Source: Terriglobia bacterium
Lineage (GTDB): Bacteria; Acidobacteriota; UBA6911
Direction of reading: 5' to 3'
Assembly: GCA_020072565.1 (NCBI GenBank)
Contig: JAIQGI010000010.1
Coordinates: 64,592 to 128,591 of the forward strand
DNA length: 64,000 nucleotides
The translations under genes and the position numbers were made by a program. Positions 10,320 to 32,569 of the stretch are shown here, piece by piece. The notes below the pieces were generated by a model, which saw only the letters and a list, made by a program, of their open reading frames with translations, had not been told where the DNA came from and did no database searches. Position 1 is the first letter of the stretch. The number at the start of each line of letters is the position of its first letter.

Positions 10320-10438
10320 TCTGCCCGCCTGTTTTGCTGCTCTCCGGGAAAAAAGACGACCAGGCCTTGCTGGTACACATGGGTATCCGCGTTTTTTATT
10401 TGAGCCTTTGATGTGGAGCGCGTGAAAGCCGGCTCAAA

Positions 10439-10465
10439 GACTCAAAGACCCTGGGACTCTGAATC
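10439..10465. repeat. 27-nt intergenic motif copy 1 (GACTCAAAGACCCTGGGACTCTGAATC), preceded by tandem CTCAAAGA x2
   Basis: 22/27 identity, including a 20-mer with one mismatch, to 26245-26271. Lies between the SDR gene end and the start of the six-hairpin glycosidase gene. Confidence 0.5.
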
Positions 10466-10484
10466 CACACCGCCTCATGGGCAT

Positions 10485-11303: not shown

Positions 11304-11306
11304 AGG

Positions 11307-13331: not shown

Positions 13332-13341
13332 CTGCCATTCC

Positions 13342-14673: not shown

Positions 14674-14691
14674 CGCTTCGCCTGGAATAAG

Positions 14692-15693: not shown

Positions 15694-15750
15694 CTTCCCT
15701 GCCGACCGGCAGTCGTTCGGGAACCGACTTCCCTTCCGCCATGGTACTCA

Positions 15751-17856
15751 TTATCTGATTGAAACCATTACCCACAACAAAACAATCACCAAGCCCACAA
15801 GCAGCCAGCACCCCCCGAATCCGACGTAATCGGACCACGCCGGTCTCAGAACCTCCCATTGTGACCCCGGGATCAGCTTTTCCTTTTCGAATCTAGCCGG
15901 ATGCGCATACGATTCCGCTACTACTTTCTCATCTTCCTCATGAGTCGGCTGTACCGGAGTGTGCAATCTGGCAAAGAACCGGTCGAGCACCACTCTTGGC
16001 GCAGGTCGGGTCAGGAATGAGATCAGGAACAGCAGCACAAAGGGGAAAAACGCATCAAAGAAAAATCGGACAGCCACCAGCTGTGATTTCCTGAAGCCCG
16101 AGAAATCGATGCCGAACCAGGAAAGAATCCAGATTTCCGCGTGAAAACGGCCCAACCCGACCTTAGCCGATTGCGGATTTTCCGGGTCTATCCTCGCCAC
16201 CCGCTCGAACAGGATACCCACGGGAGGAATCACATGATCTTTTTGTATTAATTGTCCTGTCGCCGCGGCGCGCCCTTCGCTCACATCCTGCGCCAGCGCC
16301 TGCACGGTTACCACCATCGATTGTTGTTTCGTTTCCTGCAGAAACGAACGGCTATATTTAATCGCGTCCACCTGCTGGAAGAGATTTGGTATGATCGCAT
16401 ATATCACGATACAGAGGGCCACTTGTATGATGACCGCCCACCTGGTCACGCGCCGCCAGAGAAATCCGAGCCAAATGGAAGCGCCGAAAATTGCCGGAAT
16501 TGAAATGATATATTGGAACAGCTCGAGCAGATTGTTCACGAGCAGCGCCACACCGATTCCACCCAGCAAGGAGGCGGCAATGACGATGCGGCCGACCCTC
16601 AGATAATGCCTGTCGGATTTGCCGGCATAGCGTGGTTTGTACAGGTTATTTGTGAAGAGCGCCGCGTATGAGACCGCGCCGGCGGCTAAGGCAGACATAT
16701 TGGCCGCAAGGACCCCCACCAGCATCAAGCCGATCGCCCCAGGTGCCAGCAGGTCTTTCGTCATATATCCCCAGATCATGTCCGGGTCATTCAGTTTCCC
16801 TGCGTACATCCCGACAGCCAGCAATCCGGCAAGTGCCCAGAACAGCATCAGGATGCGCTTGGCGAACATCCCGCCGATCATGCCGATGCGCGCAGTGTAC
16901 TCGTTCCTGGCCGATCCGGCGGTCTGCATCCCCGAAACCACGGCCACAATCGACACCAGGTTGGACAAAACCATCGCCAGCACGGTATACCAGGCATATT
17001 CGCTCAAGGTCGCCGAGCCGAACAGGTTGAACATGTAGTCTGGCACCTTCGCATGGAGCTGGGCGAAGCCGCCTATTCTTATTAATCCGACCGGGATCAA
17101 CATCACGGAGAATGTGATGATCAACATTCCCTGCACGGCATCAGTCAACGCAGCGGCACGGAAGCCTCCCAGCATGGTGTAGACGGCAACGACAATCGCA
17201 AACATGAAGTAGAAAAACACCGGACTGATATAGGATACGAACGATTTGAGTTCGCCTTTTTTGTTCTTCTCCCGCAATTCATTATATCGCGCTTGCCGCT
17301 CGTCGGATAATCCGTTCGCTTTCTGCGCTTCGAGCACCTGGAACTCTTCAAATTGTCGGATGCTGGCCTGCTCGGCCGGTGTGCATTCCTCGAACGGTTT
17401 CGGCGCCATCGCAACCATGGTCTTGCCCGCGACCATATAGCCGACACCGCTACCGACCAGCGAAAGCGCCAACATGAACACGGCATAACCTGCGCCGAGA
17501 AAACGACTGTTATAGCGTTCCGTGAAATAATCGCCAATCGTCGTCAACCGGACGCGACGGAAGAACAGCGTCGTGAACCAATAAAAGGGGGTGAGAAAGA
17601 GAACAAGAAACTGGATCCACATTCCGCCGATGCCCTGCCGGTAGATCTCGCGCGAGACCGCTACCGCCTGATCCGCATTGGTGGAGCATCCGAGATTGAG
17701 GAAAAACTGATAGAATTTGCCGAGATTGCGGCCGGCGAGATAAAATTCCCTTTCACTCCTGGTTTTTTTTGATACCCGCTTTCCCAGCCACACCATCACC
17801 ACGACGTATAGCGCGATGATGCTCAGATCGACGACATGAATGCCCCAAAGGTACAT
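15751..17856 (-). CDS. sodium:solute symporter family (SSS) transporter
   Basis: 701-aa polytopic membrane protein; N-terminal SSS signature (GKRVSKKTRSEREFYLAGRNLG...) and multiple hydrophobic helices throughout. Confidence 0.85.
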   Translation of the reverse strand: MYLWGIHVVDLSIIALYVVVMVWLGKRVSKKTRSEREFYLAGRNLGKFYQFFLNLGCSTNADQAVAVSREIYRQGIGGMWIQFLVLFLTPFYWFTTLFFRRVRLTTIGDYFTERYNSRFLGAGYAVFMLALSLVGSGVGYMVAGKTMVAMAPKPFEECTPAEQASIRQFEEFQVLEAQKANGLSDERQARYNELREKNKKGELKSFVSYISPVFFYFMFAIVVAVYTMLGGFRAAALTDAVQGMLIITFSVMLIPVGLIRIGGFAQLHAKVPDYMFNLFGSATLSEYAWYTVLAMVLSNLVSIVAVVSGMQTAGSARNEYTARIGMIGGMFAKRILMLFWALAGLLAVGMYAGKLNDPDMIWGYMTKDLLAPGAIGLMLVGVLAANMSALAAGAVSYAALFTNNLYKPRYAGKSDRHYLRVGRIVIAASLLGGIGVALLVNNLLELFQYIISIPAIFGASIWLGFLWRRVTRWAVIIQVALCIVIYAIIPNLFQQVDAIKYSRSFLQETKQQSMVVTVQALAQDVSEGRAAATGQLIQKDHVIPPVGILFERVARIDPENPQSAKVGLGRFHAEIWILSWFGIDFSGFRKSQLVAVRFFFDAFFPFVLLFLISFLTRPAPRVVLDRFFARLHTPVQPTHEEDEKVVAESYAHPARFEKEKLIPGSQWEVLRPAWSDYVGFGGCWLLVGLVIVLLWVMVSIR

Positions 17857-18049
17857 TTGCTGTGATCCTTATGCGTGCAGGCATTTCTATCTCGGGAGCG
17901 CTCGCGGCGCAAGGGAAATTCGGCCAGCGCTCGATTACGGGAAACTCATCCGGATCGATCAGGGAGTTGCCGGTGAGAGAAGAACATCGAACCAGCGTGC
18001 CCGCGCACCAGAATGCGCTATGCGAATCGTGGGTGACTCTGGACTCTCA

Positions 18050-19768
18050 TCACGCCAGAAACCAGAAATCCAGCGCGCCGCGATCGAGGTGGATGCGCGC
18101 CGGCTCAGGGCTGATGTCCTGGAGCATCTGGTCGCGGCGATATAACGGGCCCGGCCCTTCCGCGCCATAGTAGATCGGCACCTGGCATTGATCGGAGTCG
18201 GAGTAACCGGTCGCATCGCTATTTTCGAGCGGTTGCATCCTCACCACGGTGTCGCCCTTCCAGGTCACCCGATAGCGGTACTGCTTGAAACCGGGATTGC
18301 CGACAGTTGATTCCTCTTCGCGAATTTCCAGAGGGTAAGTGAGGGTGATCAGATCGGCAGCCGGCCGCCGGCCGAAATCGAGATAGTTGCCCCGAACATC
18401 GACCCCGAGACCTCCCCTGTCGGATTCAGCATGGATGTCGGCGGCGCCGGCAAAGTCGGGGACTCGGACGTGCACGCGGCAGTCTTGCTTGAGTCGGATG
18501 GTCAACTCGCCCCGGTAGGGCTGCAAACAGCGGATCTCGGCCTGGGGCAGCAGCTTGTCCAGGTGCATGTTCACGTAAAGGCAGTCGTCGAAGAAACGCG
18601 CCGCATTCTTCCAGACGATGAACAGGGCGTGGGTGCCCGAACCTCCGCAGCAGTTCTGGAAGGCCCGGACCTTATTCTTCAACTCGGGGCCGCCCCAATG
18701 GGCTTTGAGCGATTCCTGCGCAGCAAGGAAGTGGTTGGGTGAAGTCCAGCCCGCATAGCCGCCAAGCATGCGCCGGTCAATGTCGCGCCAGGTGAACTGA
18801 GCGGTATCGGGCTGCGACGGATCGGAGACCAGCCAGGAGCCATCGGCAAGCTGGCTCTCGATGAGATGGTTGCGGGCGGTGCGTTCGACGTCGCCCCAGT
18901 ACTCAGGATGGCCGTGGTTGGCAAGCGTGACGCCCAATCCGATGTAATCCATCAGGGCGCAGGTCTCGCAGGAGATCACGTCTCCGCGGCGTCCGACCAC
19001 CTCAGGCAGGAAACCAAACCGCGTCCCCAGGGACCGGACGTGGCGATACAGCTCATTGATACGATTCAGGAGCACCGCATCCCGCATGTAGATGGCGTAA
19101 TCAGCGGTGCCTAGCAGGGTGCGCAGGCTGCTGTGCATGTGTGCGCCCTGGCGGAGAGTGTTGCCAGGGAGGAACTCGGGTTTTTGAATGAATGTATCGC
19201 TCACGACCATGCCCGCCAGCTCCAGCGCTGCCGCCGGGGGGGCATACCGACCGGCGGCCATCAGACTCTTGAGGATGAAACCGTTGAGGTCGTCACGCTT
19301 GCCGGACCTTCTCTGCCCCAGCAGCGTCTCGACCATGGTGTGGATGCGTCGCTCCATCGCCGGCTCAGGCTGATCTGCGAATGCGGTCGCCAGGGCATAG
19401 AGCGTCAGCGCCTGGTCGCCGCTATCGGCCACGTGCTTCGAATAGTGGGTCTTGGGTCTGAAGAGCAGACCCGTGGCTGGATCGAGATAGGACTCCAGCT
19501 TCTCGCGCCACCTGGACTCGATACCCACCTGTTGTCCTGTCATACATCGGGCCATGATGGCGGCCTGGAATTGCCGGCTCATCACGTCGCCGAAGTCGGG
19601 CCAGTCGTGGGCGGCTTCGGCCGGTGTAGTCCAGAAGATGTTGAAATAAGGCTGCGCGTCTTTGTCAACCATCTCACAGAGATAGTTAAAACTGTGCCGA
19701 GCATACGTTTCCATTGCTACGGTTTGCGCAGCGGTGGCGGCTCTTCCTCCCTGGTTGCATCCTGCCAT
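18050..19768 (-). CDS. DUF1680/GH127-like glycoside hydrolase (putative beta-L-arabinofuranosidase family)
   Basis: 572 aa; contains an E-x-C (SCETCALM) and an adjacent CC pair (QNCCGGSG), reminiscent of the Glu/Cys/Cys-Cys zinc site of GH127 enzymes. AGGAGG SD 7 nt upstream of ATG. Family call is by memory and needs verification. Confidence 0.45.
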   Translation of the reverse strand: MAGCNQGGRAATAAQTVAMETYARHSFNYLCEMVDKDAQPYFNIFWTTPAEAAHDWPDFGDVMSRQFQAAIMARCMTGQQVGIESRWREKLESYLDPATGLLFRPKTHYSKHVADSGDQALTLYALATAFADQPEPAMERRIHTMVETLLGQRRSGKRDDLNGFILKSLMAAGRYAPPAAALELAGMVVSDTFIQKPEFLPGNTLRQGAHMHSSLRTLLGTADYAIYMRDAVLLNRINELYRHVRSLGTRFGFLPEVVGRRGDVISCETCALMDYIGLGVTLANHGHPEYWGDVERTARNHLIESQLADGSWLVSDPSQPDTAQFTWRDIDRRMLGGYAGWTSPNHFLAAQESLKAHWGGPELKNKVRAFQNCCGGSGTHALFIVWKNAARFFDDCLYVNMHLDKLLPQAEIRCLQPYRGELTIRLKQDCRVHVRVPDFAGAADIHAESDRGGLGVDVRGNYLDFGRRPAADLITLTYPLEIREEESTVGNPGFKQYRYRVTWKGDTVVRMQPLENSDATGYSDSDQCQVPIYYGAEGPGPLYRRDQMLQDISPEPARIHLDRGALDFWFLA

Positions 19769-19830: not shown

Positions 19831-21102
19831 ATGATATTCTGCCCGCACCAAGGAAAGCAAACTGCTATCAATATGCCAGGAGAAGACGCTGAGCCCGTAA
19901 CCGTTCTGATGGTCGCCATTGGCGGCTACGGATTCCATTATCTGAAGACTCTGCTCGATGAGCTGCCGCCCTCGCGTTGCCGACTAGCGGGTGTTGTGGA
20001 CCCGATGGCAGAGCGCTCGCTGCTGTGGCCGGTTGTGAGCCACTTTGGCATTCCGGCCTGTTCGTCCATCGACGAGTTCTATGAGGAAGGCCACCACGCC
20101 GATCTGGCCGTGATCTCCTCGCCGATTCACTGGCATGTGCCGCAGAGCCTCGTTGCGCTGTCTCGCGGGTCTTCGGTCCTCTGCGACAAGCCGCTGGGAG
20201 CGACGATCCAGGAGGCCCGGGAACTCGTCGAGGGCAGGGACCACTCCGGCCGCTGGGTCATGATCGGCTACCAGTGGTCGTACTCCAGAGCGATACTCGC
20301 ACTCAAGCGCGACATCCTGGCCGGCCTCTTCGGGTGCCCCAGGCGGCTCTCGACGCTCTGTTGCTGGCCCCGGGACTCGGGTTACTACGGCCGCAACGAC
20401 TGGGCCGGCCGTCTCCTGGATCAGCCTACGGGACGCTGGGTGCTCGATAGCCCCGCGAACAACGCGATGGCGCATTTCCTTCACAATCTCCTCTTCGTCC
20501 TTGGGTCTGAAATGCACCTGAGCGCGCAGCCGCGATCGGTGCAGGCCGAGATGTACCGGGCCAATTCGATCGAGAGTGCCGACACGGCTGCGTGCCGGGT
20601 GCTGACCGAGAATGGCACCGAGCTGCTGTTTTACGCATCCCACGCGACTGAGCGGGCCATTGACCCGCGTTTCCACTTTGAGTTCGAGGAGGCGGTTATC
20701 ACCTGCGGCGAGGAGGGGGGTGAGATCGTGGCTCTGGACCGCAAGGGAAACCTCAAGTCCTACGGCGCGCCGGATGACACATCGCAGTTCCGGAAACTGG
20801 TCGCCGCCATTGACTACGTGAGGGGTGAGGGCACGATCGCCTGCGGCCCCGAGGCCGCCATGGCGCAGACGCTCTGCGTCAACGGCATGCATGACTCGGT
20901 GTTTGAAATTCCATCGTTCCCGGTTATGCAGGTGCGCCGGGAGGGGGCGCCCGGGCGCATGATCGTCGCCGGCCTCGACGACACCCTCCTGTGTTGCTAT
21001 CGCCAGGGGAAGCTTCCCCGCGAAACCGGTGTCGCGTGGGCGGTCGCAGGCCGGTCGGTCAGTCTCTCCGATTACCGCTGTTTCCCGGGTGGAGCATCAT
21101 GA
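19831..21102 (+). CDS. Gfo/Idh/MocA-like NAD(P)-dependent oxidoreductase
   Basis: N-terminal Rossmann-like segment (VTVLMVAIGGYGFHYLKTLLDEL...VVDP) and central/C-terminal alpha/beta domain typical of the family. Alternative start at in-frame ATG 19873. Stop overlaps the next gene start (ATGA). Confidence 0.5.
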   Translation: MIFCPHQGKQTAINMPGEDAEPVTVLMVAIGGYGFHYLKTLLDELPPSRCRLAGVVDPMAERSLLWPVVSHFGIPACSSIDEFYEEGHHADLAVISSPIHWHVPQSLVALSRGSSVLCDKPLGATIQEARELVEGRDHSGRWVMIGYQWSYSRAILALKRDILAGLFGCPRRLSTLCCWPRDSGYYGRNDWAGRLLDQPTGRWVLDSPANNAMAHFLHNLLFVLGSEMHLSAQPRSVQAEMYRANSIESADTAACRVLTENGTELLFYASHATERAIDPRFHFEFEEAVITCGEEGGEIVALDRKGNLKSYGAPDDTSQFRKLVAAIDYVRGEGTIACGPEAAMAQTLCVNGMHDSVFEIPSFPVMQVRREGAPGRMIVAGLDDTLLCCYRQGKLPRETGVAWAVAGRSVSLSDYRCFPGGAS

Positions 21103-22178
21103 CCTCGCGTGAGCTGGTGCGACGCACTCTCGAGTTCGCCTCGCCGCCGGCGGTGCCGCGGCAGATCTGGATTTTGCCGTGGGCGGAACAGCATTACCCC
21201 GCCGCGGTTGCGAAACTGCGTGCTGAGTTTCCGGATGACATCGTGACCGCGCCGGCGCTCTATCGCGCGCCGCTGCCGATCGTCGGCAATCGCTACGAGA
21301 GGGGCATTTATATCGATGAGTGGGGCTGCCGATTTACGAACATCCACGGGGGCGTCATCGGAATCGTCAAGGAGCCGGTTGTCCGCGGCTGGGATGATCT
21401 TGATCATTTCCGTACGCCGGACGCCACCTTGGCTGTCGACCGCGGGGGTGTCAACGGCTTCTGCCGGAACACCGACCGCTTCGTGCTCGCCGGCACCCTG
21501 GTGCGTCCGTTCGAACGCCTCACCTTCATCCGTACTATGGAGCAGGCTTTGATGGACCTGGCAGAGCAGCCGCCCGAGTTGTTCCACCTGTTGGGACGCA
21601 TCCACAACCACTATCTGAGAGAGGTCGAGGCGTGGGCTCGGACCGAAGTCGACGCCATCGTGTTGATGGACGACTGGGGCACACAGCAACGCATGATGAT
21701 CGCGCCGGACCTCTGGCGCCGGATTTTCAAGCCCTTTTACCGCGAATACAACGAGATCGCCCGCCGTCACGGCAAGTACGTGTTCATGCACTCGGACGGC
21801 TATATCACCGACATCATTCCCGACCTCATCGAGGTCGGTGTGAATGCGCTCAACAGCCAGATCAAGTGCATGGGGGCGGTGGACCTGGGTCGGCGATTCC
21901 GCGGCCGGATCACCTTCTGGGGGGAGATGGACCGTCAGGAACTGCTCGCCTTCGGATCGACGGACGAAGTGCGACGCGCCGTCAGTGAAGCGCGTGCGAA
22001 CTTGTATGCGAACGGAGGTGTGATCGCCCAGTGCGAGTTCGGCCCCGGGGCAAAGCCCGAGAATGTATTCGCGGTCTTCCGCGCCTGGAGAGACCAGGAC
22101 GAGGCTCAGAGAATATTGATCGCAGATAAAGGCCCATCGCGGCCCGGTCCTTGCCACGATCCGCGTTCATCTGCGTAA
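21099..22178 (+). CDS. uroporphyrinogen decarboxylase (URO-D)/MtaA-CmuA-like family protein
   Basis: URO-D-family TIM-barrel resemblance from the N-terminus (MTSRELVRRTLEF...P.QIWILPWA...). Start moved from 20991 to ATG 21099 (GGGTGGAG SD), giving the ATGA overlap with the upstream gene. Confidence 0.6.
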   Translation: MTSRELVRRTLEFASPPAVPRQIWILPWAEQHYPAAVAKLRAEFPDDIVTAPALYRAPLPIVGNRYERGIYIDEWGCRFTNIHGGVIGIVKEPVVRGWDDLDHFRTPDATLAVDRGGVNGFCRNTDRFVLAGTLVRPFERLTFIRTMEQALMDLAEQPPELFHLLGRIHNHYLREVEAWARTEVDAIVLMDDWGTQQRMMIAPDLWRRIFKPFYREYNEIARRHGKYVFMHSDGYITDIIPDLIEVGVNALNSQIKCMGAVDLGRRFRGRITFWGEMDRQELLAFGSTDEVRRAVSEARANLYANGGVIAQCEFGPGAKPENVFAVFRAWRDQDEAQRILIADKGPSRPGPCHDPRSSA

Positions 22179-22219
22179 GGCTGCGGTTCTTTTCGAGGAC
22201 AGGAAAGGAGGAGTAGGCG

Positions 22220-24592
22220 ATGATGCAGGCGCACAAGGGAACAGTCTTCGCTCTGGTCCTGTTATCGGCCTTGGCAGTGCCGCCGTTGCTGCTTCACCAC
22301 GCGTCATCCGCAGTTCCGCAGGGCACGACGGTTCGAGCCGCGCCGGTCATCCCTCGCGATCGCTACCTCCAATACGCCCGCGCGGCCGCCGATTGGACGT
22401 GGGATCACCAGGGCGAAATCCTCAAGCAGTGGCGCGCGACTTTTGATCCGGAAAGCCCCTTCGGCTATCGGGCCCCCGGCGGCCTGATCGATATGGCTCT
22501 CATCTACTCCTATCTCTTCGAGAAGGAGGGCAATGCTGTCTACGCCGAGCGCGCGAAAAACGTGCTGCTCACCTATGGCGACTACCGCTCACAGTTCCCG
22601 GAGTCGGCTGCCAGGAAGCGACCCGACTACTCGAACGGCGTGCCGGCGCTGCCTGACTTTTTTGTCGTGATGCGGTTCGTGCGGGCCTACGATACGCTTC
22701 ACCGCCTGGGAAAGCTCTCAACCGCCGAAGCGGTCGCGGTGGAATCGCTGGTCGCGCACAGCATGGACTATCTGCTGCAGACATCCGAGTGGGGCACGAT
22801 GAACCGGACGATGTTGCGCGCCGAATCGCTGGCGTGGGCCGTACGGGCCATGAAGAACCATCCGCGCGCGGCCGCCTATGAGACCCAGCGCCGGGCGCTC
22901 GGCGACGATAACTGGGGCAACTGGGAGATCGAAGACGCGACCATCTATCACGGCGTCTGGGTCTACGCGCTGCTCGGCTACTCCGACGCGCTCGGTCGCA
23001 TGGACGAGCTCTTCAAGACACCCGAGTTTTATTACTACACCCACTACTTCCTGAATCTGATGTCGCCGGCGGCTGTCGTGCCCGATTTCGGCGACGCCCA
23101 GTGGACGTCGAACTGGCAGCACTTCCTGGTCTTCTTCGAGGCCGCGGCTGCACGGCTGAACGAGCCGACGATGAAATGGGCCGCGCAAGCGATCGCGGCG
23201 AAGTTCGTCGATTTCAAAAATCCTACGAGCGCGGGCCTCGGCTGCTTCCTGCTCGACGCGTATCGCTGGGGCCGCGACGATGTGGCGGCCACCCCGCCGG
23301 CAACATTGAGTGGGGAGGTCATGGAGGACGTGCAGGGCAAGAAAGTTGTGTTCCGCAACGGCTGGAGGCCCGATGCGACCTACCTCCTCCTCAATTACCG
23401 TGACGAGGGGGACGGCGGCCTGAACTTCCGCGATTATCTGCGTGATTCGATCCCGGTCGAGGAAGAGAAGATGACCCACGGCCATGCCGATGAAAACAGC
23501 GTCGTCCTCCTCATGTCGGGCGGGTCGGTGCTGCTTCACGACGGCGGGTACCGCGACTACATGCCGAGCGGGCCATTCGGTGCCTATCGGCAGGACTACT
23601 TCCACAACCGGCTGATAGTGCGCCCGGAAAAGATCTTCATGGGTCAGAAGGAGGGCGAACAGCGTTACAGCACGAAGGAGCCGGTGCCGGCGCAACCGCT
23701 CTTCGAGTTCCTGCGTGACGCGGGCTCGTATCGTCCGATTCGGACCAGAAAGGTCGACTTCCTGGCATTGCCCGAGTTCGACTACAGCCGGACCCGGCTC
23801 ATCGACGATGGCTGGAAATATGATTCAGATCGGGTGGTAGTGTATGTGAAGGACCCGGAAATGTTCGTCGTCTTCGACATCTTCAAGTCAGCGACCGCGG
23901 AGTACTTCACGCTGGCAAACCTCTGGCACACGCGGCAGATCCTGGCACGCGGCGAGCACTGGTATGACACCGTGTACGACGTGATCGGCACCGAGAAGCT
24001 CCCGACCGATCGGCGGTTGCTCATCTGCTTCCCACAGACCCATTACCGGCTCGAAGGCATCGAACCGGTGAAGCGGCACTACCAGGATGAACAGACGATT
24101 TACCAGATGACCGCCAGTCATTTCGAGCCGACCCACACCGAGGGCTTCGTAACCGTCCTTGTCCCGCACGGGAAAGACCAATCGCCTTCGACCCTGGTGG
24201 ACCGCCTGCGCTTCATCGAGACCGTCCCCGCGCGCACGGGCATGGCTGTGAGGATCGAAGCCGGAGGCCGCGTGATCACCGTCGGCGTCAAGAACGACCT
24301 GCGCATGGACATCGCGCGGGACTGGCGCCGGCCGCGGTATGTCTATGAAAAAGGGAAGATCGCGTACGGATCGCTAGAAACGGACGGTGACCTGGTGTTC
24401 GCTTCGGAAAACAAGGGAGAACTCTCGTACACCATTGTCAATATGACGAGAGCGCAGCGCGGTGAGCAGGTGCTCTTTCAGAACGGCCAGTCGTTCCACG
24501 GCTTGCCTTTCGACGCGTCGACCGATACCGGCGGCGTCGACAAGGTGCGTTACTGGCGCGACACCGTGAGGATTGACACCCGTGGCAAGTGA
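22220..24592 (+). CDS. secreted heparinase II/III-like polysaccharide lyase family protein
   Basis: AAGGAGGAG SD 7 nt upstream. Signal peptide (MMQAHKGTVFALVLLSALAVPPLLL). C-terminal HGHADENSVVLLMSGGSVLLHDGGY matches the heparinase II/III-like domain signature; N-terminal alpha/alpha-toroid region. Confidence 0.55.
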   Translation: MMQAHKGTVFALVLLSALAVPPLLLHHASSAVPQGTTVRAAPVIPRDRYLQYARAAADWTWDHQGEILKQWRATFDPESPFGYRAPGGLIDMALIYSYLFEKEGNAVYAERAKNVLLTYGDYRSQFPESAARKRPDYSNGVPALPDFFVVMRFVRAYDTLHRLGKLSTAEAVAVESLVAHSMDYLLQTSEWGTMNRTMLRAESLAWAVRAMKNHPRAAAYETQRRALGDDNWGNWEIEDATIYHGVWVYALLGYSDALGRMDELFKTPEFYYYTHYFLNLMSPAAVVPDFGDAQWTSNWQHFLVFFEAAAARLNEPTMKWAAQAIAAKFVDFKNPTSAGLGCFLLDAYRWGRDDVAATPPATLSGEVMEDVQGKKVVFRNGWRPDATYLLLNYRDEGDGGLNFRDYLRDSIPVEEEKMTHGHADENSVVLLMSGGSVLLHDGGYRDYMPSGPFGAYRQDYFHNRLIVRPEKIFMGQKEGEQRYSTKEPVPAQPLFEFLRDAGSYRPIRTRKVDFLALPEFDYSRTRLIDDGWKYDSDRVVVYVKDPEMFVVFDIFKSATAEYFTLANLWHTRQILARGEHWYDTVYDVIGTEKLPTDRRLLICFPQTHYRLEGIEPVKRHYQDEQTIYQMTASHFEPTHTEGFVTVLVPHGKDQSPSTLVDRLRFIETVPARTGMAVRIEAGGRVITVGVKNDLRMDIARDWRRPRYVYEKGKIAYGSLETDGDLVFASENKGELSYTIVNMTRAQRGEQVLFQNGQSFHGLPFDASTDTGGVDKVRYWRDTVRIDTRGK

Positions 24593-26165
24593 GACCCGAA
24601 TCCGGACCGGCCGGCGCGAGTTCGACGAATTGTATCCGCTCGTGCGCTCGTTCCTCGAGCGCGACATCCTGGATCTGTCAATCGACGGGCAGCGCATCCG
24701 GGGGTACAGGTCGGCGGACACGCGCTCGATCTGGATCCGCGACCATGGCGACATGATGCGGACGTTCCGATACTTCGAGCGCGACGTGACCAGCGCCATC
24801 CGGCACTTCTCGGAGACCCAGGCGGAGAGCGGCCGCATCTTCGATTACTTCACTACCTTCCCGGAGAAGCTGCCGAGCGAACGGGAGAACTGGACCAAGT
24901 ACGTGCGCGTGCCGGTCGAAGCCGATGTCGAGTACCGCTTCGTCAAGGCCGCGTGGCTCGCGTGGCAGGCAACGGGCGACGATGCCTGGATTCGACAGCT
25001 GATGCCCCGGATGGAGAAGGCGCTGGCCTACATCACATCGCACCCGTGGTACTGGGACCGCATCCGCGGCCTGGTGAAGCGGGCCTACACGATCGACACC
25101 TGGGACTTCGCTTACACGGCAGGCCGACATGACTGGCTCCAGTTTCAGATCACCGACGACACGTTCTGGGGCATCCTGCACGGCGACAACAGCGGCTACT
25201 ATCAAGCGTTTCTCATCATGGCGGCGTTATGGCGGCGGTTCGGCGAGCAGGCGCGGGCTGGCGAGTGGGAGGCGCGCGCTGCAACCTTGCGCGACAATCT
25301 GAACCGGATTTGTTGGAACGGCCGTTTCTACACCCACTTCGTAAAGATTACTGACGCCGTGATCCCCGGCGTGGACGAAGCGGAGCAGCTCAGCCTGAGC
25401 AATCCGATGGATATCAATCGCGGGGCGGCAACCCACGAGCAAGCGGTCTCGATCCTGCGCGAGTATCAGCGCAGGCGGGATGAACGCCGGGCGTTCGCCG
25501 AGTGGTTCTCAATCGACCCGCCGTTTCCCGACGGAGTGTTCGGCGATGAGCGCCTCGTGCGTGGCGCGTACTGCAACGGCGGCATCATGCCGCTCGTCGG
25601 AGGAGAGCTGGCGCGGGCTGCGCTCGGGCACGGGTTCGAGGCATACGGCGTGGACATCCTGCGCCGGTATTTCGACCTGGTGTCGAAAACGGGCTCAACC
25701 TACCTCTGGTATTTTCCGGACGGCAGGCCGAGCAGCATAGAGACCAGCACGAGTCCGGAAGCGTCTCCGACAGACGGCTGGGGATCGAGTGCGATGTGCT
25801 GGGCACTGACAGAAGGCCTGGCAGGGGTCGTGGATCGAGGCCGGGGATTTGACTGTGTGGAAATCTCGCCGCGCTGGCCGGCGGCCGGCATCGAGGAGGC
25901 GGAAGTTTCAGTCGGCTACGAATGCTCGGAGCGCGGCATCGCCTACCAGGTGCGCGTGCTGCCGGACAAGATCGTGCTCACGGTCGATGCAGATGGATCG
26001 GAAGCCGGATTGCACGTGCTGTTGCCAGCCGGAGCGGAACCACGGGCAGTCCGATGCAACGGGCATGACGTGCCGTTCCACGCCGTGACGGTTGAGCAGA
26101 GCCGTTACGCGGATTTTGATGCCGCCGTCCGAGGAACTGCCCAATTTGAGATTCCGTTTCGTTGA
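24573..26165 (+). CDS. hypothetical protein, possible (alpha/alpha)6-type glycosidase-like
   Basis: 530-aa ORF beginning at TTG 24573 (or GTG 24582), overlapping the upstream stop by 20 or 11 nt. No confident family. Aromatic-rich segments (WYWD, WDFAYTAG, FWGILHGDNSGYY) suggest a carbohydrate-active fold. Confidence 0.35.
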   Translation: MTPVASETRIRTGRREFDELYPLVRSFLERDILDLSIDGQRIRGYRSADTRSIWIRDHGDMMRTFRYFERDVTSAIRHFSETQAESGRIFDYFTTFPEKLPSERENWTKYVRVPVEADVEYRFVKAAWLAWQATGDDAWIRQLMPRMEKALAYITSHPWYWDRIRGLVKRAYTIDTWDFAYTAGRHDWLQFQITDDTFWGILHGDNSGYYQAFLIMAALWRRFGEQARAGEWEARAATLRDNLNRICWNGRFYTHFVKITDAVIPGVDEAEQLSLSNPMDINRGAATHEQAVSILREYQRRRDERRAFAEWFSIDPPFPDGVFGDERLVRGAYCNGGIMPLVGGELARAALGHGFEAYGVDILRRYFDLVSKTGSTYLWYFPDGRPSSIETSTSPEASPTDGWGSSAMCWALTEGLAGVVDRGRGFDCVEISPRWPAAGIEEAEVSVGYECSERGIAYQVRVLPDKIVLTVDADGSEAGLHVLLPAGAEPRAVRCNGHDVPFHAVTVEQSRYADFDAAVRGTAQFEIPFR

Positions 26166-26244
26166 ATATTGCCCGCGAGTCGTGCGCTCCTTGGAGCCTG
26201 CGAGTCCTGGGGTCCTTGGGATGGCACCTAATCCTGGCCTCAAA

Positions 26245-26271
26245 AACTCAAAGACCCTGAGACTCCAAGTC
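26245..26271. repeat. 27-nt intergenic motif copy 2 (AACTCAAAGACCCTGAGACTCCAAGTC)
   Basis: Lies about 35 nt upstream of the 768-aa hypothetical gene start. Contains the internal 5-bp inverted repeat GAGAC-CCAA-GTCTC. Confidence 0.5.
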
Positions 26272-26306
26272 TCGGAGGCTCATGACAGAAAGCCCAGGGA
26301 TTGACT

Positions 26307-28613
26307 ATGACTGTTGCTGAAGCGTTGAAGATGATCCGCCAGGTCCTGATACAGGCTGATGCATCCGAGGTGTTTGAGACGGCCGCCCGAGCTATCGCAT
26401 GCCGCAGCGGCGCGACCGTAGTCAGGCGCGGGCGGATCACTGGGCGCCGGTCGGCCGGCCTTTTCCAACTCGTGGACGCACCGGAACGGTCCAGAGGCGC
26501 TGAGCACGAGCGGGTCGTGATCCGGCTGCGCCGGGATGGATCAGGCATGCTCTCCGCCACTCACAACCGCTTTCTCTTCGCCGCCGTTTCGTACATGCTT
26601 GACGTTCTTGCCGACCACGATTTGAAAGAACTCGAGGATGGCCTCACGCTCACACCGGCGTTTTCGTGGAACCGTCCCTGCTACGACCTCTTCCTCACAC
26701 AGGAAGGCCGCATTCAACACGGCCTGAGCCGCGAGACCTACGTGCGCCGCCTGGCTGAGTGCGGTTTCACCCACCTGGAAGTGAACGGCCTCGCCTTCCC
26801 CATGGGGTTTGAGAGGGGACCGAAGGGAGAGGTGTACCCGATGTTTTACACCTATTGTCCAGCGCTCGATCAGTTCGTCTACTCGAAGTTGAACAAGGGC
26901 CTCTATCCGTTCTACTACCTCTCGGCGAACCTCGCCTATCTGAAGGAGAACGCAGCCCTCGCGCGCAAATTCGGCCTCGTGCCGGGACTGCTGTGCTTCG
27001 AACCGCGGACCGTCCCCGAGGAGTTCTTCACGCGTTATCCCATGCTGCGTGGCGCCCGCGTGGATCACCCGTTCCGCTCCTTCAAGCCTCGCTTTACGCT
27101 GACCATCACCCACCCGCTCGTGCGGGAGCACTACGCCGAGATGATCACAAAGCTGCTCCGCGAGGTCCCTGAGCTGGGTTACCTCACAATCTGGACCAAT
27201 GACAGCGGCTCCGGCTTCGAACACACGAAGTCGCTCTATGTGGGACGCAACGGCGGCGCCTATATGATCCGCGAGTGGAAGGACGACGCGGAGATCGCGC
27301 GGGTTGCAGGAGAATGGGCGCTCACTTTTTTCCGCGGGCTGCGAGATGCCGCACGACGGGTCAACCCGGACTTCCGCGTCATCACCCGCCTCGAATCGTT
27401 CTATGGCGAGCACGACACTATCTGGCGCGGGCTCGAGACGGGCGTCGATGTCGAGACGGCTTCGCTCATAGCGCGCGGCTGGGATATGCCGTACACGCAC
27501 CCGCGCTATCCCGACTCCAAGCAGATCAACGGCGGATCCGTCTACCAACTCCGATTTGCCAGGCGCGAACGGATGCAGATGGCCGAACTCGAAGGCCGCT
27601 CCGCCGACGTCCATTTCTACTTTGCAGCCGGACCACACCAGATGTTCGCTCCGCTCATCGGGGTTCCGTATCCTCGGCTGACACACCGCCGCCTGAAGCT
27701 GCTCCGTAACAACGGCGTGCGTCACCTCGCCCAGATCGGCGGGACCTTTCCGCCCGAACTCGTACCCTGGAACATCAATCATGAAGTGCTCAGGCGGTTC
27801 CAGCTCGACCCGGCAACGAAGATGGACAAGGAGGTGGAAGGACTTGCGCGCCGCTGGGCCGGCAGAGAGCTGGCGCCGATGCTGCTGCGTGCCTGGAGTC
27901 TGGCAGAGGAAGCGATGCTCGCCTTTCCCAATATCTCCACGCTGTATTCGACGATCGGCTTTACGTGGTACCGCCTGTGGGTGCGGCCGTTGGTGCCGAA
28001 TATCGAGGCAATTCCGCGGAAGGATCGGGCGTACTATGAAGACTTCATGTGTACGACGCCGCACAACCCGAACAACGTCGACCTGAGCCGCGACGTCCTC
28101 TTTCGGCTGACCACCGCAGAGAAAAGCCGTCTCGACGTGGCGCGGATTGACGGGGGCGTCTGGCCTGCTCTGGACAAAGCGATCGGGCTGCTGGAATCCG
28201 CGGCGGGTAGGGCCGGTGCGATTCTGGGGAAGGCCAACGTGATCGAGGACCAGACCGTCCGGCTGAAGGCCCTCCGCTGCTGGATCATGACGCAGCGCAA
28301 CGTGGCGGCATGGATTGCGGGTGTTTACGGATGGATGGAGGCCAAGTCCGCGGCTGGAAAGCGCAGGCACCGGGTGCTGCTCGGCAATATGATGCGCATG
28401 GAGATAGCGAACAGCGAGGCGCTGCTGCGCCTGTTCGATTCGGGCGTCGAATTCATGACGACGACCGATTTTGGCGAGACGCCGCTCATGCACGGCCGCA
28501 ATCTCAAGGAGCTGCTGCGGAGGCGTATCGCGCTCATGGAGCGCCATATCGATGACGATCCGTTCATAGATCACGACTACATGATGCGCATGGCAGGCCG
28601 CATCATGCAGTGA
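26307..28613 (+). CDS. large hypothetical protein (768 aa) within the polysaccharide-utilisation cluster
   Basis: Track ORF starts at TTG 26301; ATG at 26307 follows an AGGGA SD. No recognisable family. The antisense 677-aa ORF 26541..28574 is regarded as a GC artefact. Confidence 0.5.
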   Translation: MTVAEALKMIRQVLIQADASEVFETAARAIACRSGATVVRRGRITGRRSAGLFQLVDAPERSRGAEHERVVIRLRRDGSGMLSATHNRFLFAAVSYMLDVLADHDLKELEDGLTLTPAFSWNRPCYDLFLTQEGRIQHGLSRETYVRRLAECGFTHLEVNGLAFPMGFERGPKGEVYPMFYTYCPALDQFVYSKLNKGLYPFYYLSANLAYLKENAALARKFGLVPGLLCFEPRTVPEEFFTRYPMLRGARVDHPFRSFKPRFTLTITHPLVREHYAEMITKLLREVPELGYLTIWTNDSGSGFEHTKSLYVGRNGGAYMIREWKDDAEIARVAGEWALTFFRGLRDAARRVNPDFRVITRLESFYGEHDTIWRGLETGVDVETASLIARGWDMPYTHPRYPDSKQINGGSVYQLRFARRERMQMAELEGRSADVHFYFAAGPHQMFAPLIGVPYPRLTHRRLKLLRNNGVRHLAQIGGTFPPELVPWNINHEVLRRFQLDPATKMDKEVEGLARRWAGRELAPMLLRAWSLAEEAMLAFPNISTLYSTIGFTWYRLWVRPLVPNIEAIPRKDRAYYEDFMCTTPHNPNNVDLSRDVLFRLTTAEKSRLDVARIDGGVWPALDKAIGLLESAAGRAGAILGKANVIEDQTVRLKALRCWIMTQRNVAAWIAGVYGWMEAKSAAGKRRHRVLLGNMMRMEIANSEALLRLFDSGVEFMTTTDFGETPLMHGRNLKELLRRRIALMERHIDDDPFIDHDYMMRMAGRIMQ

Positions 28614-28624
28614 CTGAACAGTAA

Positions 28625-28661
28625 CCGGAACACGACAACAATCTTCCGTGTGTTTCGTGGC
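28625..28661. repeat. post-stop motif copy B (CCGTGTGTTTCGTGGC with imperfect upstream complement)
   Basis: Located 12-48 nt after the stop of the 768-aa hypothetical gene. The right arm is nearly identical to the copy A and C arms; the left arm pairs imperfectly (CGGAA/TTCCG; ACACG/CGTGT). Confidence 0.4.
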
Positions 28662-28677
28662 TTCCAGCGGGAAATCG

Positions 28678-29775
28678 ATGAATTCTCGAGAGCGCCTTCT
28701 TGCGGCATTGGATCGGCAGGTGCCGGATCGCCTGCCGGCGACGACGCATCACCTGATGCCGTCGTTCCTGGCGGGTAGGGGCGGCATCAGTGAGCGAGAA
28801 TTCTTCGACCGCTTCGGCCTCGACGCGATCCGTTGGGTTACGGGCCTGCGCCGCGATGCGACGGGATCTGTCAGAGACTGGCGGGTCGAGCGCGAGGACC
28901 TCCCGGCTCCCCACTACCTCACAACGCGTTTCCACATTATCACCCCGCACGGCTCGCTTTCCATGGTGCTTCAGAACGATGGGCGGACAGATTGGGTGAG
29001 GGAGCGCCTGATCAAAAAGAAGAACGACATCGACCTGATCGCACGTTATGCACCCATCCCTCTCTGCGATACCGAGCAGGTGCAACGTGAGGCCGCCGCC
29101 TTCGGCGCGCGCGGCATCGTGCGCGGTGCCGTCCCCGGCTTCCCGATCTACGGCCAGCCGGGCTGCTGGCAGGACGCAGCCGTGCTCTTCGGCATCGAGG
29201 AGCTGATTGTGGAGACATTCGATGATCCCGCGTGGGTAACCGAGTTGCTGGCCATCCTTCAGCACCGCAAGCTCGTCTGGATCGAATCGGCGCTGGGTGC
29301 GCCCTTTGATCTTCTCGAACTCGGCGGCGGCGACGCCTCCTCTACGGTCATCTCCCCGGCGCTATTCGATCGCTTCGTCGCCCCGTTTGACATACCGCTC
29401 ATCGCCGCCGCGCACCAGGCCGGCCTGCGCATCGTGTATCACACATGTGGCGGGATGATGCCCATACTCGAGCGACTCGTCGAAATGGGACCCGACGCGA
29501 TGGAGACGTTCACACCGCGATCGATGGGCGGAGACGCCGATCTGCGCCAAGCGAAGCAGCGCATCGGCCGGCGCGTCTGCATGATCGGCGGCTTCGACCA
29601 GTTCCACCACTTCGTTGCCTGCACACCGGAAGAAACCCGCCGGGCAGTGCGCGCCTGCTTCGAAGAGGCCGGACAGGGCGGCGGTTACATCCTGGCGCCC
29701 TCCGACCACTTCTTCCAGGCCGATGAAGCGCTCCTGCGCGCATATGGCGATGAGGCTGGATCCTGCAGGTATTGA
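28678..29775 (+). CDS. uroporphyrinogen decarboxylase (URO-D)/MtaA-like family protein, second paralog
   Basis: URO-D-family resemblance (MNSRERLLAALDRQVPDRLP...HHLMPSF...). Start placed at ATG 28678 rather than GTG 28648, because 28646-28661 is occupied by the post-stop hairpin motif of the upstream gene. Confidence 0.6.
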   Translation: MNSRERLLAALDRQVPDRLPATTHHLMPSFLAGRGGISEREFFDRFGLDAIRWVTGLRRDATGSVRDWRVEREDLPAPHYLTTRFHIITPHGSLSMVLQNDGRTDWVRERLIKKKNDIDLIARYAPIPLCDTEQVQREAAAFGARGIVRGAVPGFPIYGQPGCWQDAAVLFGIEELIVETFDDPAWVTELLAILQHRKLVWIESALGAPFDLLELGGGDASSTVISPALFDRFVAPFDIPLIAAAHQAGLRIVYHTCGGMMPILERLVEMGPDAMETFTPRSMGGDADLRQAKQRIGRRVCMIGGFDQFHHFVACTPEETRRAVRACFEEAGQGGGYILAPSDHFFQADEALLRAYGDEAGSCRY

Positions 29776-30148
29776 CGGCCTCTACGGACGCGTCTCGCCG
29801 CGGAAAATCATGAGCGAAGTGATTCGCGAGCGACCTGGACCGGCCCGCCCCCGCCGTGCCGCGATGCCAAAGCGCTACTCGCACAGCCTCCTGTGCCCGC
29901 GCTCGGGGAATCCGTGAAATATTTTCACAAAGTCGGCACCCCGCGGCATTGTTTTTGTGTATCATCCCAAGGATGGCGGACACCGGAAGCGCCAGCAGAT
30001 TACGCCGGATCCCTACTTTTTCCGCGCCGCACGTTCGTCGTCAGCGGGATTCGATCCTCGAACGCACTCTAATTAGATTTTTTTAACTTTATGCATCACT
30101 GCACAGGATCCAGGGATTGATGCGGAGGGCGATCCTCAGGAAAACACC

Positions 30149-31299: not shown

Positions 31300-32511
31300 A
31301 TGACCCGATGCCCATCTTGTGCAGCCATCGTAGCGGTCGGCAGGCCAAGCTGCCCGTCGTGCGGGAAGGAGCTTGAGGCGGTCACTTCCGAAGATGCGCT
31401 GCTCGCGCAACTCGCCGAGGAATTTACCTGCGCTGCGCGGGAGGGGCGGAATCCGGGCATCGAGGAATACGCGCTCAGAATGATCGACGGGCGCGGCCGG
31501 GCGCGCATCACGGATTTCGGTCTGGCGGCTTTGGCCAGCCAGCGGCCCGGCGACGTCCTTCGTGCGGGCACTCCGGCCTACATGGCTCCTGAGCAACTTG
31601 CGGGCCAGGAGGCCTCGGTCAAGAGTGACGTCTATGCCCTTGGCCTGGTCCTGTATGAGATCTTTACCGGCCAGCGGGCATTCAAGGCCGACAGTTTCCC
31701 GGAACTTGACCGGCTCCGCGAGCGGAACGTCCTGGCTCGGCCATCAAGCCTGGCCAAGGGCATCCACTCCTCGGTCGAGAGCATCATTCTGCGCTGCCTG
31801 GACAAAGATCCCAATGCAAGGCCATCGGCATTCCAGATCGCCGCGGCGCTCCCAGGACGGGATCCGCTGGCGGAGGCACTGGCAGCCGGTGAAACCCCTT
31901 CCCCCGAGATGGTGGCGGCGTCACCGATGCAAGGAGCCCTGAGGCCGGCCGTGGCGGTGGCTTGCCTGGCGGCACTGGTTCTGTGCCTTCTGCTCATGAT
32001 TCCTTCGTCGCGGGGCATGCTGCACCGTCTCACGCCATTCGAGTTGTCTCCGCAGATCCTCGCCGATCGCGCCGCCACGATCGCGAAGAACCTGGGTTTC
32101 CTCAAACCACCGGCCGACAGCGCATTTGGATTTGGCCGCAATGACGAGTTCCTGGACTATGTCGCGAATCACGATTTCTCGCCCTCCCGGTGGGAGAAGT
32201 TGCGCGATGGCAGGCCGGCGGCGCTGTATTTCTGGTATCGCAAGAGCCCCAGCCCCCTGGTGGCATACAGCCTGGGCCGAATCTCGCCGACTGATCCGCC
32301 GCTCGAAATCCCCAACATGGTAACCATCTTGCTCGACACGCACGCACGCTCGATCGAGTACCAGGCCGTCCCGTCCGAAGTAGAGAATGTCCGCACGCCG
32401 CCGCCAGAGCCCAAGTGGGATGCCCTGTCTGACCGGCCTTCCTCTCTGATTCTGGATGTTCCGCAGACCAGGCTGCATTCAGCTGGCAGAGAGCGGACCG
32501 GCGCCCTATAA
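31300..32511 (+). CDS. degenerate Hanks-type kinase-like membrane protein (N-terminal zinc ribbon, C-lobe-only kinase remnant, TM helix)
   Basis: N-terminal CPSC-x13-CPSC zinc-ribbon. Retains DFG (ITDFGLA), APE-like (TPAYMAPEQ), DVYALGLVLYE and C-lobe motifs. Lacks the Gly-rich loop, VAIK lysine and HRD catalytic loop. One TM helix (VAVACLAALVLCLLLMI) and a roughly 160-aa C-terminal extracytoplasmic region. Confidence 0.6.
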   Translation: MTRCPSCAAIVAVGRPSCPSCGKELEAVTSEDALLAQLAEEFTCAAREGRNPGIEEYALRMIDGRGRARITDFGLAALASQRPGDVLRAGTPAYMAPEQLAGQEASVKSDVYALGLVLYEIFTGQRAFKADSFPELDRLRERNVLARPSSLAKGIHSSVESIILRCLDKDPNARPSAFQIAAALPGRDPLAEALAAGETPSPEMVAASPMQGALRPAVAVACLAALVLCLLLMIPSSRGMLHRLTPFELSPQILADRAATIAKNLGFLKPPADSAFGFGRNDEFLDYVANHDFSPSRWEKLRDGRPAALYFWYRKSPSPLVAYSLGRISPTDPPLEIPNMVTILLDTHARSIEYQAVPSEVENVRTPPPEPKWDALSDRPSSLILDVPQTRLHSAGRERTGAL

Positions 32512-32569
32512 TGGGCCCCGTCCGTATGGCCAACCTTAAACCGGGGACAACCAGTTGCTCCGAGATCGG

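Follow-up and report, generated by a model that had tools for sequence, protein, structure and literature searches.

A conserved glycan locus of Acidobacteriota with two URO-D-superfamily proteins as candidate methyltransferases of a corrinoid-dependent demethylase

Gene content and extent of the locus

The locus described here lies in a stretch of 64,000 nucleotides from a Terriglobia bacterium (contig JAIQGI010000010.1, positions 64,592 to 128,591), to whose full length we refer as the window. Its core is formed by six tightly packed open reading frames (ORFs) on the plus strand, G1 to G6 (19831-29775), which encode a sugar oxidoreductase (G1), two proteins of the URO-D superfamily (G2 and G6), a secreted protein with a polysaccharide-lyase fold (G3) and two large cytoplasmic proteins with glycosidase-like features (G4 and G5). 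A preliminary description of this DNA had proposed these six co-directional genes with an ATGA and a 20-nt overlap between neighbors, and all of them were recovered in an ORF check of the window, at the same positions. The ATGA at 21099-21102 joins the TGA stop codon of G1 to the ATG start codon of G2, and the two genes are, as far as this overlap tells, translationally coupled. G4 starts with TTG at 24573, overlapping the end of G3 by 20 nt (G3 stop codon 24590-24592), and G6 starts with ATG at 28678.

We compared the window with related loci, which are numbered with the prefix L and of which L001 to L083 are the 83 closest; database proteins carry the prefix P. Synteny across these 83 loci shows that the six genes of the preliminary description belong together but make up only part of the functional unit, which is about twice as large and reaches upstream to ~5766 (~5766-29775). 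The upstream part adds a GH38 protein, a GH15-like protein, a short-chain dehydrogenase/reductase (SDR), two reductases, one FAD-dependent and one of the Old-yellow-enzyme type (OYE), a xylose-isomerase-type barrel and a sodium:solute symporter (SSF). In Terriglobia and Vicinamibacterales, the usual gene order is SSF, xylose-isomerase-type barrel, (OYE, FAD enzyme, SDR), GH15-like protein, GH38, G1, G2, G3, G4, in many loci a class-V aminotransferase, G5 and G6. In the window, the unit is divided into two divergent operons, one on the minus strand (5766-17856) and one on the plus strand (19831-29775), and there is a step in G+C content inside it, from 53-57% in the minus-strand operon (6001-18000) to 62-64% in the G1-G6 operon (19831-30000). 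A scan for promoters and terminators yielded no more sites than shuffled sequence. Relatives of G3 are found in 261 species-level genomes and those of G2 in more than 555 metagenome stretches, and since the same neighbors recur around both, the clustering of G1-G6 is not due to chance.

The URO-D-superfamily proteins and their possible corrinoid partners

G2 (21099-22178) and G6 (28678-29775) match the URO-D family PF01208 with 54.0 and 62.2 bits, respectively (gathering cut-off 23.9), and are thus URO-D-like, as had been proposed. The preliminary description called them paralogs, but their identity is only 24% over 168 aa, which places them in two different, distant subfamilies and argues against a recent duplication. 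In an NCBIfam scan at E≤1, both proteins matched models of the MtaA/CmuA type only and left the HemE model unmatched, and there are no tetrapyrrole or heme genes in the window or the related loci; neither protein is a tetrapyrrole enzyme. Single-sequence searches with G2 and G6 against PDB returned nothing useful.

The best match to G2 among 1.84 billion representatives is P0361 (E 4e-112, 50% identity along the whole of G2). This protein of 592 residues consists of a G2 domain fused to an N-terminal half with B12-binding_2 and B12-binding domains, including the cobalamin-binding motif GDLHDIG. Its contig (L087) carries, in this order, a PfkB kinase, the fusion protein, an SSF symporter with 58% identity to that of the window, a class-V aminotransferase and an orthologue of G3 (41% identity), and is of the same locus type as the window.

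A metagenome scan added 80 further G2 loci, and we then typed the neighbors of 95 G2 orthologues. Directly upstream of G2 lies a Gfo/Idh/MocA oxidoreductase, the arrangement of the window, in 41 of the 95 loci, a stand-alone corrinoid protein of 205-228 aa in 16 (Pfam-confirmed on three) and another gene in 24; the corrinoid domain is fused to G2 in two (L087 and L156), and in 12 G2 is too near the contig end for typing. The corrinoid-linked loci have the same surroundings as the others, namely the xylose-isomerase-type barrel, OYE, FAD enzyme, SDR, SSF, Gfo and GH38. Further, G2 has ten candidate active-site residues (D73, R145, D185, D191, D192, H231, D233, Q254, C312 and E313) that do not vary within or between the corrinoid-linked and Gfo-linked groups, and the corrinoid-linked orthologue of L123 is 60% identical to the G2 of the window. 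Because these residues are the same in both groups, at identities of up to 60%, the simplest reading is that the whole orthologue group has one chemistry. By analogy with the co-encoded pairs MtaB/MtaC and OdmB/OdmA, G2 would be a substrate:corrinoid methyltransferase (methyltransferase I, MT I, type). Of the two activities that had been suggested for the URO-D-like proteins, demethylation gains strong comparative support, since in loci of this type G2 orthologues adjoin a corrinoid-binding protein or form a fusion with it, whereas decarboxylation is not supported, since only MtaA-type models are matched and the partner is a B12 carrier.

Corrinoid-carrying loci also encode, directly after G2, a conserved protein of ~290 aa (L160, 11059-11928; L139, 11066-11962; 11 others), which bears a signal peptide, belongs to no Pfam family and is absent from the window. 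As a candidate for the second methyltransferase (MT II), this 289-aa ORF is a poor choice because of its signal peptide and the lack of a Pfam match. We also discarded P0443, seemingly a fusion of Gfo and G2, as a frameshifted chimera in which G1, G2 and G3 are read in wrong frames.

For G6, the family profile matches the structure of MtaA (4ay7), and the alignment superimposes an invariant YHTCGG (H255-T-C257) onto the LHICGN zinc motif; in all, H255, C257, E276, D343 and H344 are invariant. In analogy to MtaA, G6 may act as a methyl-corrinoid:acceptor methyltransferase (MT II type), or else as a second MT I, and its His-x-Cys site makes a thiol the probable acceptor. A sugar-linked operon in L140 contains, in this order, a LacI regulator, a G2 orthologue, a URO-D protein, a corrinoid protein, a monosaccharide-type ABC transporter, another URO-D protein, a G6 orthologue (51% identity, all motifs retained) and a PfkB kinase. 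L127 has an operon of this type that lacks the corrinoid gene and, the two operons being otherwise near-identical, it appears to be common that the corrinoid protein is encoded elsewhere.

Candidate carbohydrate-active proteins, neighboring genes and lineage variants

Structures of G3 and G5 were predicted from alignments of database homologues. G3 (22220-24592; 790 aa) starts with a hydrophobic leader, as judged by eye, and its AlphaFold model (AF2, pLDDT 76) shows this leader followed by an α/α toroid (~residues 45-350) and a C-terminal β-sandwich. Foldseek searches with the model matched polysaccharide lyases (E 1e-14 to 1e-6), the best being the PL39 alginate lyase Dp0100 (1e-14), along with PL17 Alg17c, PL12 heparinase III, PL15 exo-heparinase, PL40 and PL8; the matches to 6jp4, 4nei, 5jmf, 4mmh and 6lja had a probability of 1.0 and E-values of 1e-14 to 1e-9 at an identity of ~12%. 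The sequence of G3 has no match in Pfam (E≤0.01), NCBIfam or PDB, and its orthologue in L087 carries a faint Hepar_II_III_N record. The earlier assignment of G3 as a secreted heparinase II/III-like lyase thus holds for the predicted fold but not for the sequence family, and on the basis of the model G3 is heparinase II/III-like at fold level only. GH88 enzymes act on the unsaturated uronates that lyases make, and the presence of GH88 near G3 relatives supports a role of G3 as a uronate-polymer lyase. Across acidobacterial classes, G3 orthologues retain at least 60% identity.

The two large proteins downstream of G3, given as 530 and 768 aa in the preliminary description, proved to be real and, like G3, unusually conserved. 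G4 (24573-26165; 530 aa, cytoplasmic) is weakly glycoside-hydrolase-like: it matches MGH1-like in Pfam (E 0.0018), and its family profile matches the exo-β-D-arabinanase 8ic6 in PDB (E 1.6e-5), both weakly, and it reaches significance with no Pfam or NCBIfam family; its fold may be an (α/α)6-barrel. It is not a GH88-type unsaturated uronyl hydrolase, as a profile-profile comparison with GH88 of the Aminicenantes loci revealed no similarity. G5 (26301-28613; 770 aa, or 768 aa from the ATG at 26307) is a cytoplasmic, glycosidase-like protein, whose AF2 model (pLDDT 81, pTM 0.88) comprises an N-terminal α/β domain, a TIM barrel and a helical C-terminal domain. Its best Foldseek match is the GH138 structure 6hze (E 1.4e-13, TM 0.54), followed by GH20C, GH89 and GH84. 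The sequence of G5 matches no family in Pfam or NCBIfam and its family profile none in PDB, for which reason G5 cannot be assigned to a CAZy family. The database entry for G5, P0241, has 711 aa (100% identity, 92% coverage); its start was probably called too far downstream, as G5 homologues align along all 770 residues.

G1 (19831-21102) is the NAD(P)-dependent sugar oxidoreductase of the Gfo/Idh/MocA type that had been expected from the sequence: it matches PF01408, the N-terminal NAD(P)-binding Rossmann domain, with an E-value of 3.7e-13 (50.7 bits, cut-off 24), and has distant NCBIfam matches to IolG, UDP-GlcNAc 3-dehydrogenase and levoglucosan dehydrogenase. In most relatives, the gene directly upstream of G1 encodes the α-mannosidase-family protein GH38, which in the window lies at the far end of the minus-strand operon (5766-8288; 840 aa; Pfam Glyco_hydro_38N/C). 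In one lineage, GH38 and Gfo/Idh/MocA are fused into a single protein of 1193 aa (L003, 1-1093; L006, 4997-8578), which ties a mannosidase-like step to the oxidoreductase and hence to G2.

The remaining members of the minus-strand operon were likewise assigned from family matches and synteny. A GH15-like (α/α)6 protein (8289-10319; 676 aa) conservedly adjoins GH38; its NCBIfam matches to trehalase and oligosaccharide-amylase models (E 2.6e-12) are far under the cut-offs. It is followed by the SDR (10485-11303; Pfam adh_short, NCBIfam PRK12745 above cut-off), an FAD-dependent oxidoreductase of the fumarate-reductase/aspartate-oxidase type (11307-13331; 674 aa; Pfam FAD_binding_2 and NCBIfam), the OYE-type FMN oxidoreductase (13342-14673; 443 aa; Pfam Oxidored_FMN), the xylose-isomerase-like TIM barrel, a sugar isomerase, epimerase or lyase type (14692-15693; Pfam AP_endonuc_2), and the SSF symporter (15751-17856; 701 aa; Pfam SSF, NCBIfam sss). 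This symporter likely imports the substrate of the cluster; its gene directly follows G2 in L066, L087, L098, L121, L123 and L172 and lies 1-5 kb downstream in further loci.

Between the two operons and divergent from G1, the minus strand encodes a protein of 572 aa (18050-19768), which has no match in Pfam or NCBIfam and no homologue in L001-L083. As only the window has it among the sampled loci, it is doubtful whether it belongs to the unit. Two of its motifs, SCETCA and NCCGGSG, resemble the Cys/Glu zinc site of GH127/GH146 β-L-arabinofuranosidases. Downstream and outside the conserved cluster (31300-33697), the window encodes a 403-aa protein, in which a zinc ribbon is combined with a Ser/Thr kinase domain reduced to its C-terminal half, and after it a protein of 380 aa that ends in a 4Fe-4S dicluster domain.

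Several lineages have variants of the locus. A class-V aminotransferase (Aminotran_5, weakly DegT) lies between G4 and G5 or beside the SSF symporter in L004 (13991-15310), L002, L003/L006, L010, L012, L087 and L123; the window has only a gap of 135 nt at this position (26166-26300). The aminotransferase might indicate that an amino sugar or inosamine is processed, or that the pathway is connected to thiol or methionine metabolism. A reduced variant (L016, L019, L021 and L023) retains the barrel, Gfo, SSF, G3, G4 and G5 and lacks URO-D genes, GH38 and the GH15-like protein. It has a DUF993 protein upstream of the barrel (L019, 3431-4783, as well as L016, L021 and L023), preceded in L019 by a second Gfo/Idh/MocA protein. 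An ORF after G5 in L019, considered as a divergent URO-D, showed no similarity and is probably a spurious high-GC ORF.

In most loci of the Aminicenantes type (L015-L083), G3 occurs without G1, G2 and G4-G6 within 10 kb; three of them have a G5-like gene near. In L038, the G3 orthologue lies beside housekeeping and cell-envelope genes, namely those for Der GTPase, N-acetylmuramoyl-L-alanine amidase and an AMIN-domain outer-membrane protein. The Aminicenantes-type G3 orthologues are at least 60% identical, a conservation unusual for a catabolic lyase. In fourteen of these loci, G3 is followed at a distance of ~3-7 kb by an OYE-like gene, GH88 or both, and three have a nearby URO-D-like gene of a third subfamily, in two cases directly beside GH88.

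Outside the Acidobacteriota-type arrangement, a glycan locus of the gut Firmicute Subdoligranulum variabile (L086; OY725838.1, 84037-103047) encodes a PLP enzyme, GH88, an unknown protein, AraC, GH2, two URO-D proteins, ROK, a third URO-D, GH78, a weak URO-D match and an M20 peptidase, in this order. One of its four URO-D-like genes is under the Pfam cut-off, and no corrinoid protein was seen in the 19 kb examined; the PLP enzyme is of the Cys_Met_Meta_PP family. A homologue on a Chloroflexota plasmid is accompanied by Gfo, a xylose-isomerase-type barrel and ROK, again with no corrinoid protein. In Vescimonas, a more distant relative carries a fused B12 domain, and its neighbors are homocysteine S-methyltransferase-family and glycine-cleavage genes, not CAZymes; this illustrates the usual chemistry of that branch of the superfamily. 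The short contig L091 (58-3296) encodes a PfkB kinase, an Ldh_2-family dehydrogenase and, after them, a more distant G2-like protein (33% identity), a context of the sugar-acid type.

The association of URO-D-like genes with glycan and sugar genes recurs in these other lineages, beside GH88 in Aminicenantes, with GH88, GH2 and GH78 in Subdoligranulum and beside Gfo and a xylose-isomerase-type barrel in Chloroflexota. The preliminary description had treated synteny with CAZymes and a location with cobalamin genes as opposites, yet both are true together.

Proposed role of the locus and comparison with known systems

The folds, family matches and synteny described above, together with the corrinoid proteins that adjoin G2 orthologues or are fused to them, lead us to consider it fairly probable that the locus (~5766-29775) serves the catabolism of an acidic glycan, probably containing uronate and mannose, and that G2 and G6 are the methyltransferases of a corrinoid (vitamin B12)-dependent demethylase. 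Which way the methyl group moves, which of the two proteins is MT I and which MT II, and what serves as substrate and acceptor are matters of interpretation, for which we propose the following. Secreted G3, if it has the activity its modeled fold suggests, would cut the acidic glycan outside the cell, and the SSF symporter would take up the fragments, which GH38, the GH15-like protein, G4 and G5 might then trim in the cytoplasm. G2 would move the O-methyl group of a released sugar to the Co(I) of the corrinoid protein and G6, by analogy with MtaA, would hand it on to an acceptor, probably a thiol. The demethylated sugar would be processed by Gfo, the xylose-isomerase-type barrel, SDR, OYE and the FAD enzyme.

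Methylated sugars are common: 4-O-methyl-glucuronic acid occurs in xylans and arabinogalactan proteins, 2-O-methyl sugars in rhamnogalacturonan II, and methyl-mannose and methyl-galactose in microbial and algal glycans, in addition to methyl-inositols. The methyl ether blocks ordinary sugar catabolism. Candidate substrates are 4-O-methyl-glucuronate, O-methyl-mannose and the methyl sugars found in glycans of plants or microbes; O-methyl-inositols are further candidates, as the Gfo/IolG-like protein, an IolE-like barrel, PfkB and SSF are equally typical of inositol catabolism. More tentatively, and with somewhat more doubt than conviction, we propose that an oxygen-independent, cobalamin-dependent sugar O-demethylase, composed of a G2-type protein, a corrinoid protein and a G6-type protein, is widespread in glycan loci of Acidobacteriota, with variant forms in other phyla.

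A number of observations weigh against the assignment of G2 and G6 to a corrinoid-dependent sugar demethylase. No corrinoid-binding protein was found in the 64-kb window or in L001-L083 with tblastn and a custom HMM, such that the one used in this genome would have to be encoded outside the window. Corrinoid-carrying loci mostly lack G6 and G6 loci mostly lack a corrinoid protein, all three genes being together only in L140. An Rfam scan of the window and four loci of the corrinoid type gave no match and thus no cobalamin riboswitch, and a reductive activase of the RamA/RACE type is missing among the Pfam-annotated neighbors, for which no dedicated search was made. The profile comparison suggested earlier for separating URO-D proper from MtaA/CmuA is clear with respect to HemE, but the matches to MtaA/CmuA models (TIGR01463, NF040654, NF004889) remain far below the curated cut-offs of 235-400 bits, with 23-29 bits for G2 and 39-50 bits for G6. 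At the zinc-ligand position, G2 has H231-S-D233 in place of His-x-Cys, with a distal invariant C312-E313. In G6, the distal D343-H344 falls into an unaligned segment and was placed by eye where we take the third zinc cysteine of MtaA to lie. Known O-demethylases act on aryl methyl ethers, which Co(I) cleaves more readily than alkyl methyl ethers such as those of sugars, and to our knowledge the cleavage of the latter by Co(I) has no precedent. Also, Co(I) chemistry is sensitive to oxygen, and many of these Acidobacteriota are presumably aerobic. A literature search for URO-D-like or corrinoid methyltransferases in glycan loci or acting on methylated sugars found none.

Alternatively, G2 and G6 could be corrinoid-dependent but act on a substrate other than a carbohydrate, either methyl-sulfur compounds or methoxylated aromatics that occur together with plant glycans, such as ferulate and other phenyl methyl ethers from lignin; the glycan genes would then be merely co-located. 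Aside from HemE, every characterised member of the UroD superfamily has as its substrate an aryl methyl ether, a methylthiol, a halomethane or methyl-corrinoid:CoM (PMC10418091), and the B12-fused relative in Vescimonas is near homocysteine S-methyltransferase-family and glycine-cleavage genes instead of CAZymes. However, G2 is coupled to a sugar oxidoreductase of the Gfo/Idh/MocA type, which in some genomes is fused to GH38, minimal operons pair G2 and G6 with LacI, monosaccharide-type ABC transporters and PfkB, and aromatic-catabolism genes were not seen in any locus. We therefore regard a non-carbohydrate substrate as unlikely.

The missing corrinoid gene of the window and its closest loci could also mean that, in Gfo-linked clusters, G2 and G6 are corrinoid-free, metal-dependent TIM-barrel enzymes, which would act in another way on a keto-sugar that Gfo produces, for example by isomerisation, hydration or elimination. 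The conserved Asp, Asp, His, Asp, Glu and Cys of G2 would fit a divalent-metal site as well, and the Chloroflexota homologue, with Gfo, the xylose-isomerase-type barrel and ROK, does without a corrinoid protein. Against this, the ten conserved residues of G2 are identical with and without a corrinoid gene, at cross-group identities of up to 60%, and near-identical operons exist with (L140) and without (L127) this gene. A corrinoid-free role appears improbable to us.

We rate it as very improbable that G2, G6 or both are cofactor-independent decarboxylases of unsaturated uronates or keto-uronates from the lyase. Both proteins do belong to PF01208, and a lyase-fold protein, together with GH88 in relatives, would lead one to expect carboxylated sugar intermediates. 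Yet the models matched are all of the MtaA type and none is of HemE, G6 retains the MtaA zinc motif, and the B12 carrier fused or adjacent to G2 orthologues would have no role in such a decarboxylation. Moreover, α-keto acids derived from uronates lack the pyrrole electron sink that UroD uses. Very improbable, too, is a biosynthetic direction, in which a methyl-corrinoid donor would serve to methylate an envelope sugar or exopolysaccharide of the cell's own: corrinoid methyltransferases are in principle reversible, G3 is extremely conserved (at least 60% identity across classes) and stands alone in L038 and similar Aminicenantes loci, in L038 among housekeeping and cell-envelope genes, but the locus has an importer, exo-glycosidase-like proteins, sugar kinases and LacI regulators and lacks glycosyltransferases and polymer export genes.

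If our assignment of G2 and G6 to a sugar demethylase is true, bacteria could strip methyl ethers from 4-O-methyl-glucuronate, O-methyl-mannose, -fucose and -xylose or O-methyl-inositols without oxygenases, and the cleavage of ethers by Co(I) would be extended from aryl to alkyl (carbohydrate) methyl ethers. It would also link the availability of cobamides to polysaccharide turnover in soils and sediments. The locus offers a testable candidate, in which a B12-dependent methyltransferase pair is combined with a lyase, glycosidases, a sugar oxidoreductase and transporters in hundreds of uncultured Acidobacteriota, and it defines, with G3, G4 and G5, three uncharacterised and highly conserved CAZyme-like families. 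Should the assignment be wrong, the locus would still represent an uncharacterised glycan pathway with clear limits, in one of the dominant phyla of soil.

Among known systems, HemE shares PF01208 and the TIM-barrel superfamily with G2 and G6 but differs in that the HemE model is not matched, heme genes are missing and a corrinoid partner exists in orthologous loci. The lyases of PL12, PL15, PL17 and PL39 have the α/α toroid, β-sandwich and secretion in common with G3, which is only ~12% identical to them and unusually conserved. MtaA, MtbA and MtsA, the methylcobamide:coenzyme M methyltransferases, share with G6 the fold and the aligned His-x-Cys and provide its best NCBIfam models, although at scores far below the cut-offs; coenzyme M is not expected in Acidobacteriota. 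For the bacterial MtaA-like "Mlp" clusters of Kountz & Balskus, no carbohydrate context is mentioned (PMC10418091).

The only carbohydrate demethylase found in our literature search is the cytochrome P450 that removes the methyl group from 6-O-methyl-D-galactose in marine Bacteroidetes, a reaction that depends on O2 and releases formaldehyde (PMC6292453). It likewise removes a sugar methyl ether within a polysaccharide-utilisation locus, but its fold is unrelated and its mechanism oxidative, in contrast to the oxygen-independent cobalamin transfer proposed here.

The UroD superfamily is known to include corrinoid-dependent demethylases of the O-, S- and halogen type as well as the MtaA-type methyltransferases (PMC10418091); the latter and the O-demethylases of anaerobes come closest to the system proposed here. 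These O-demethylases, with three or four components (OdmA-D of Acetobacterium dehalogenans, VdmB, those of Desulfitobacterium and MtoABC of Methermicoccus) likewise combine a UroD-superfamily methyltransferase with a small protein of B12-binding_2 and B12-binding domains and with a second methyltransferase, and the cleavage of a methyl ether by Co(I) would be the chemistry in common. They differ in that their second methyltransferase is of the pterin-binding MeTr type, whereas G6 is MtaA-like, and in that the corrinoid gene often lies outside the cluster in the loci described here. Further, the known enzymes act on phenyl methyl ethers and their genes have a C1 or aromatic context, whereas the window has a glycan and sugar locus with a lyase fold, GH38 and Gfo, joined by sugar transporters and PfkB in relatives. 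What sets the locus apart from known corrinoid systems is this glycan and sugar catabolic context, the carbohydrate methyl ethers as presumed substrates and the Acidobacteriota lineage.

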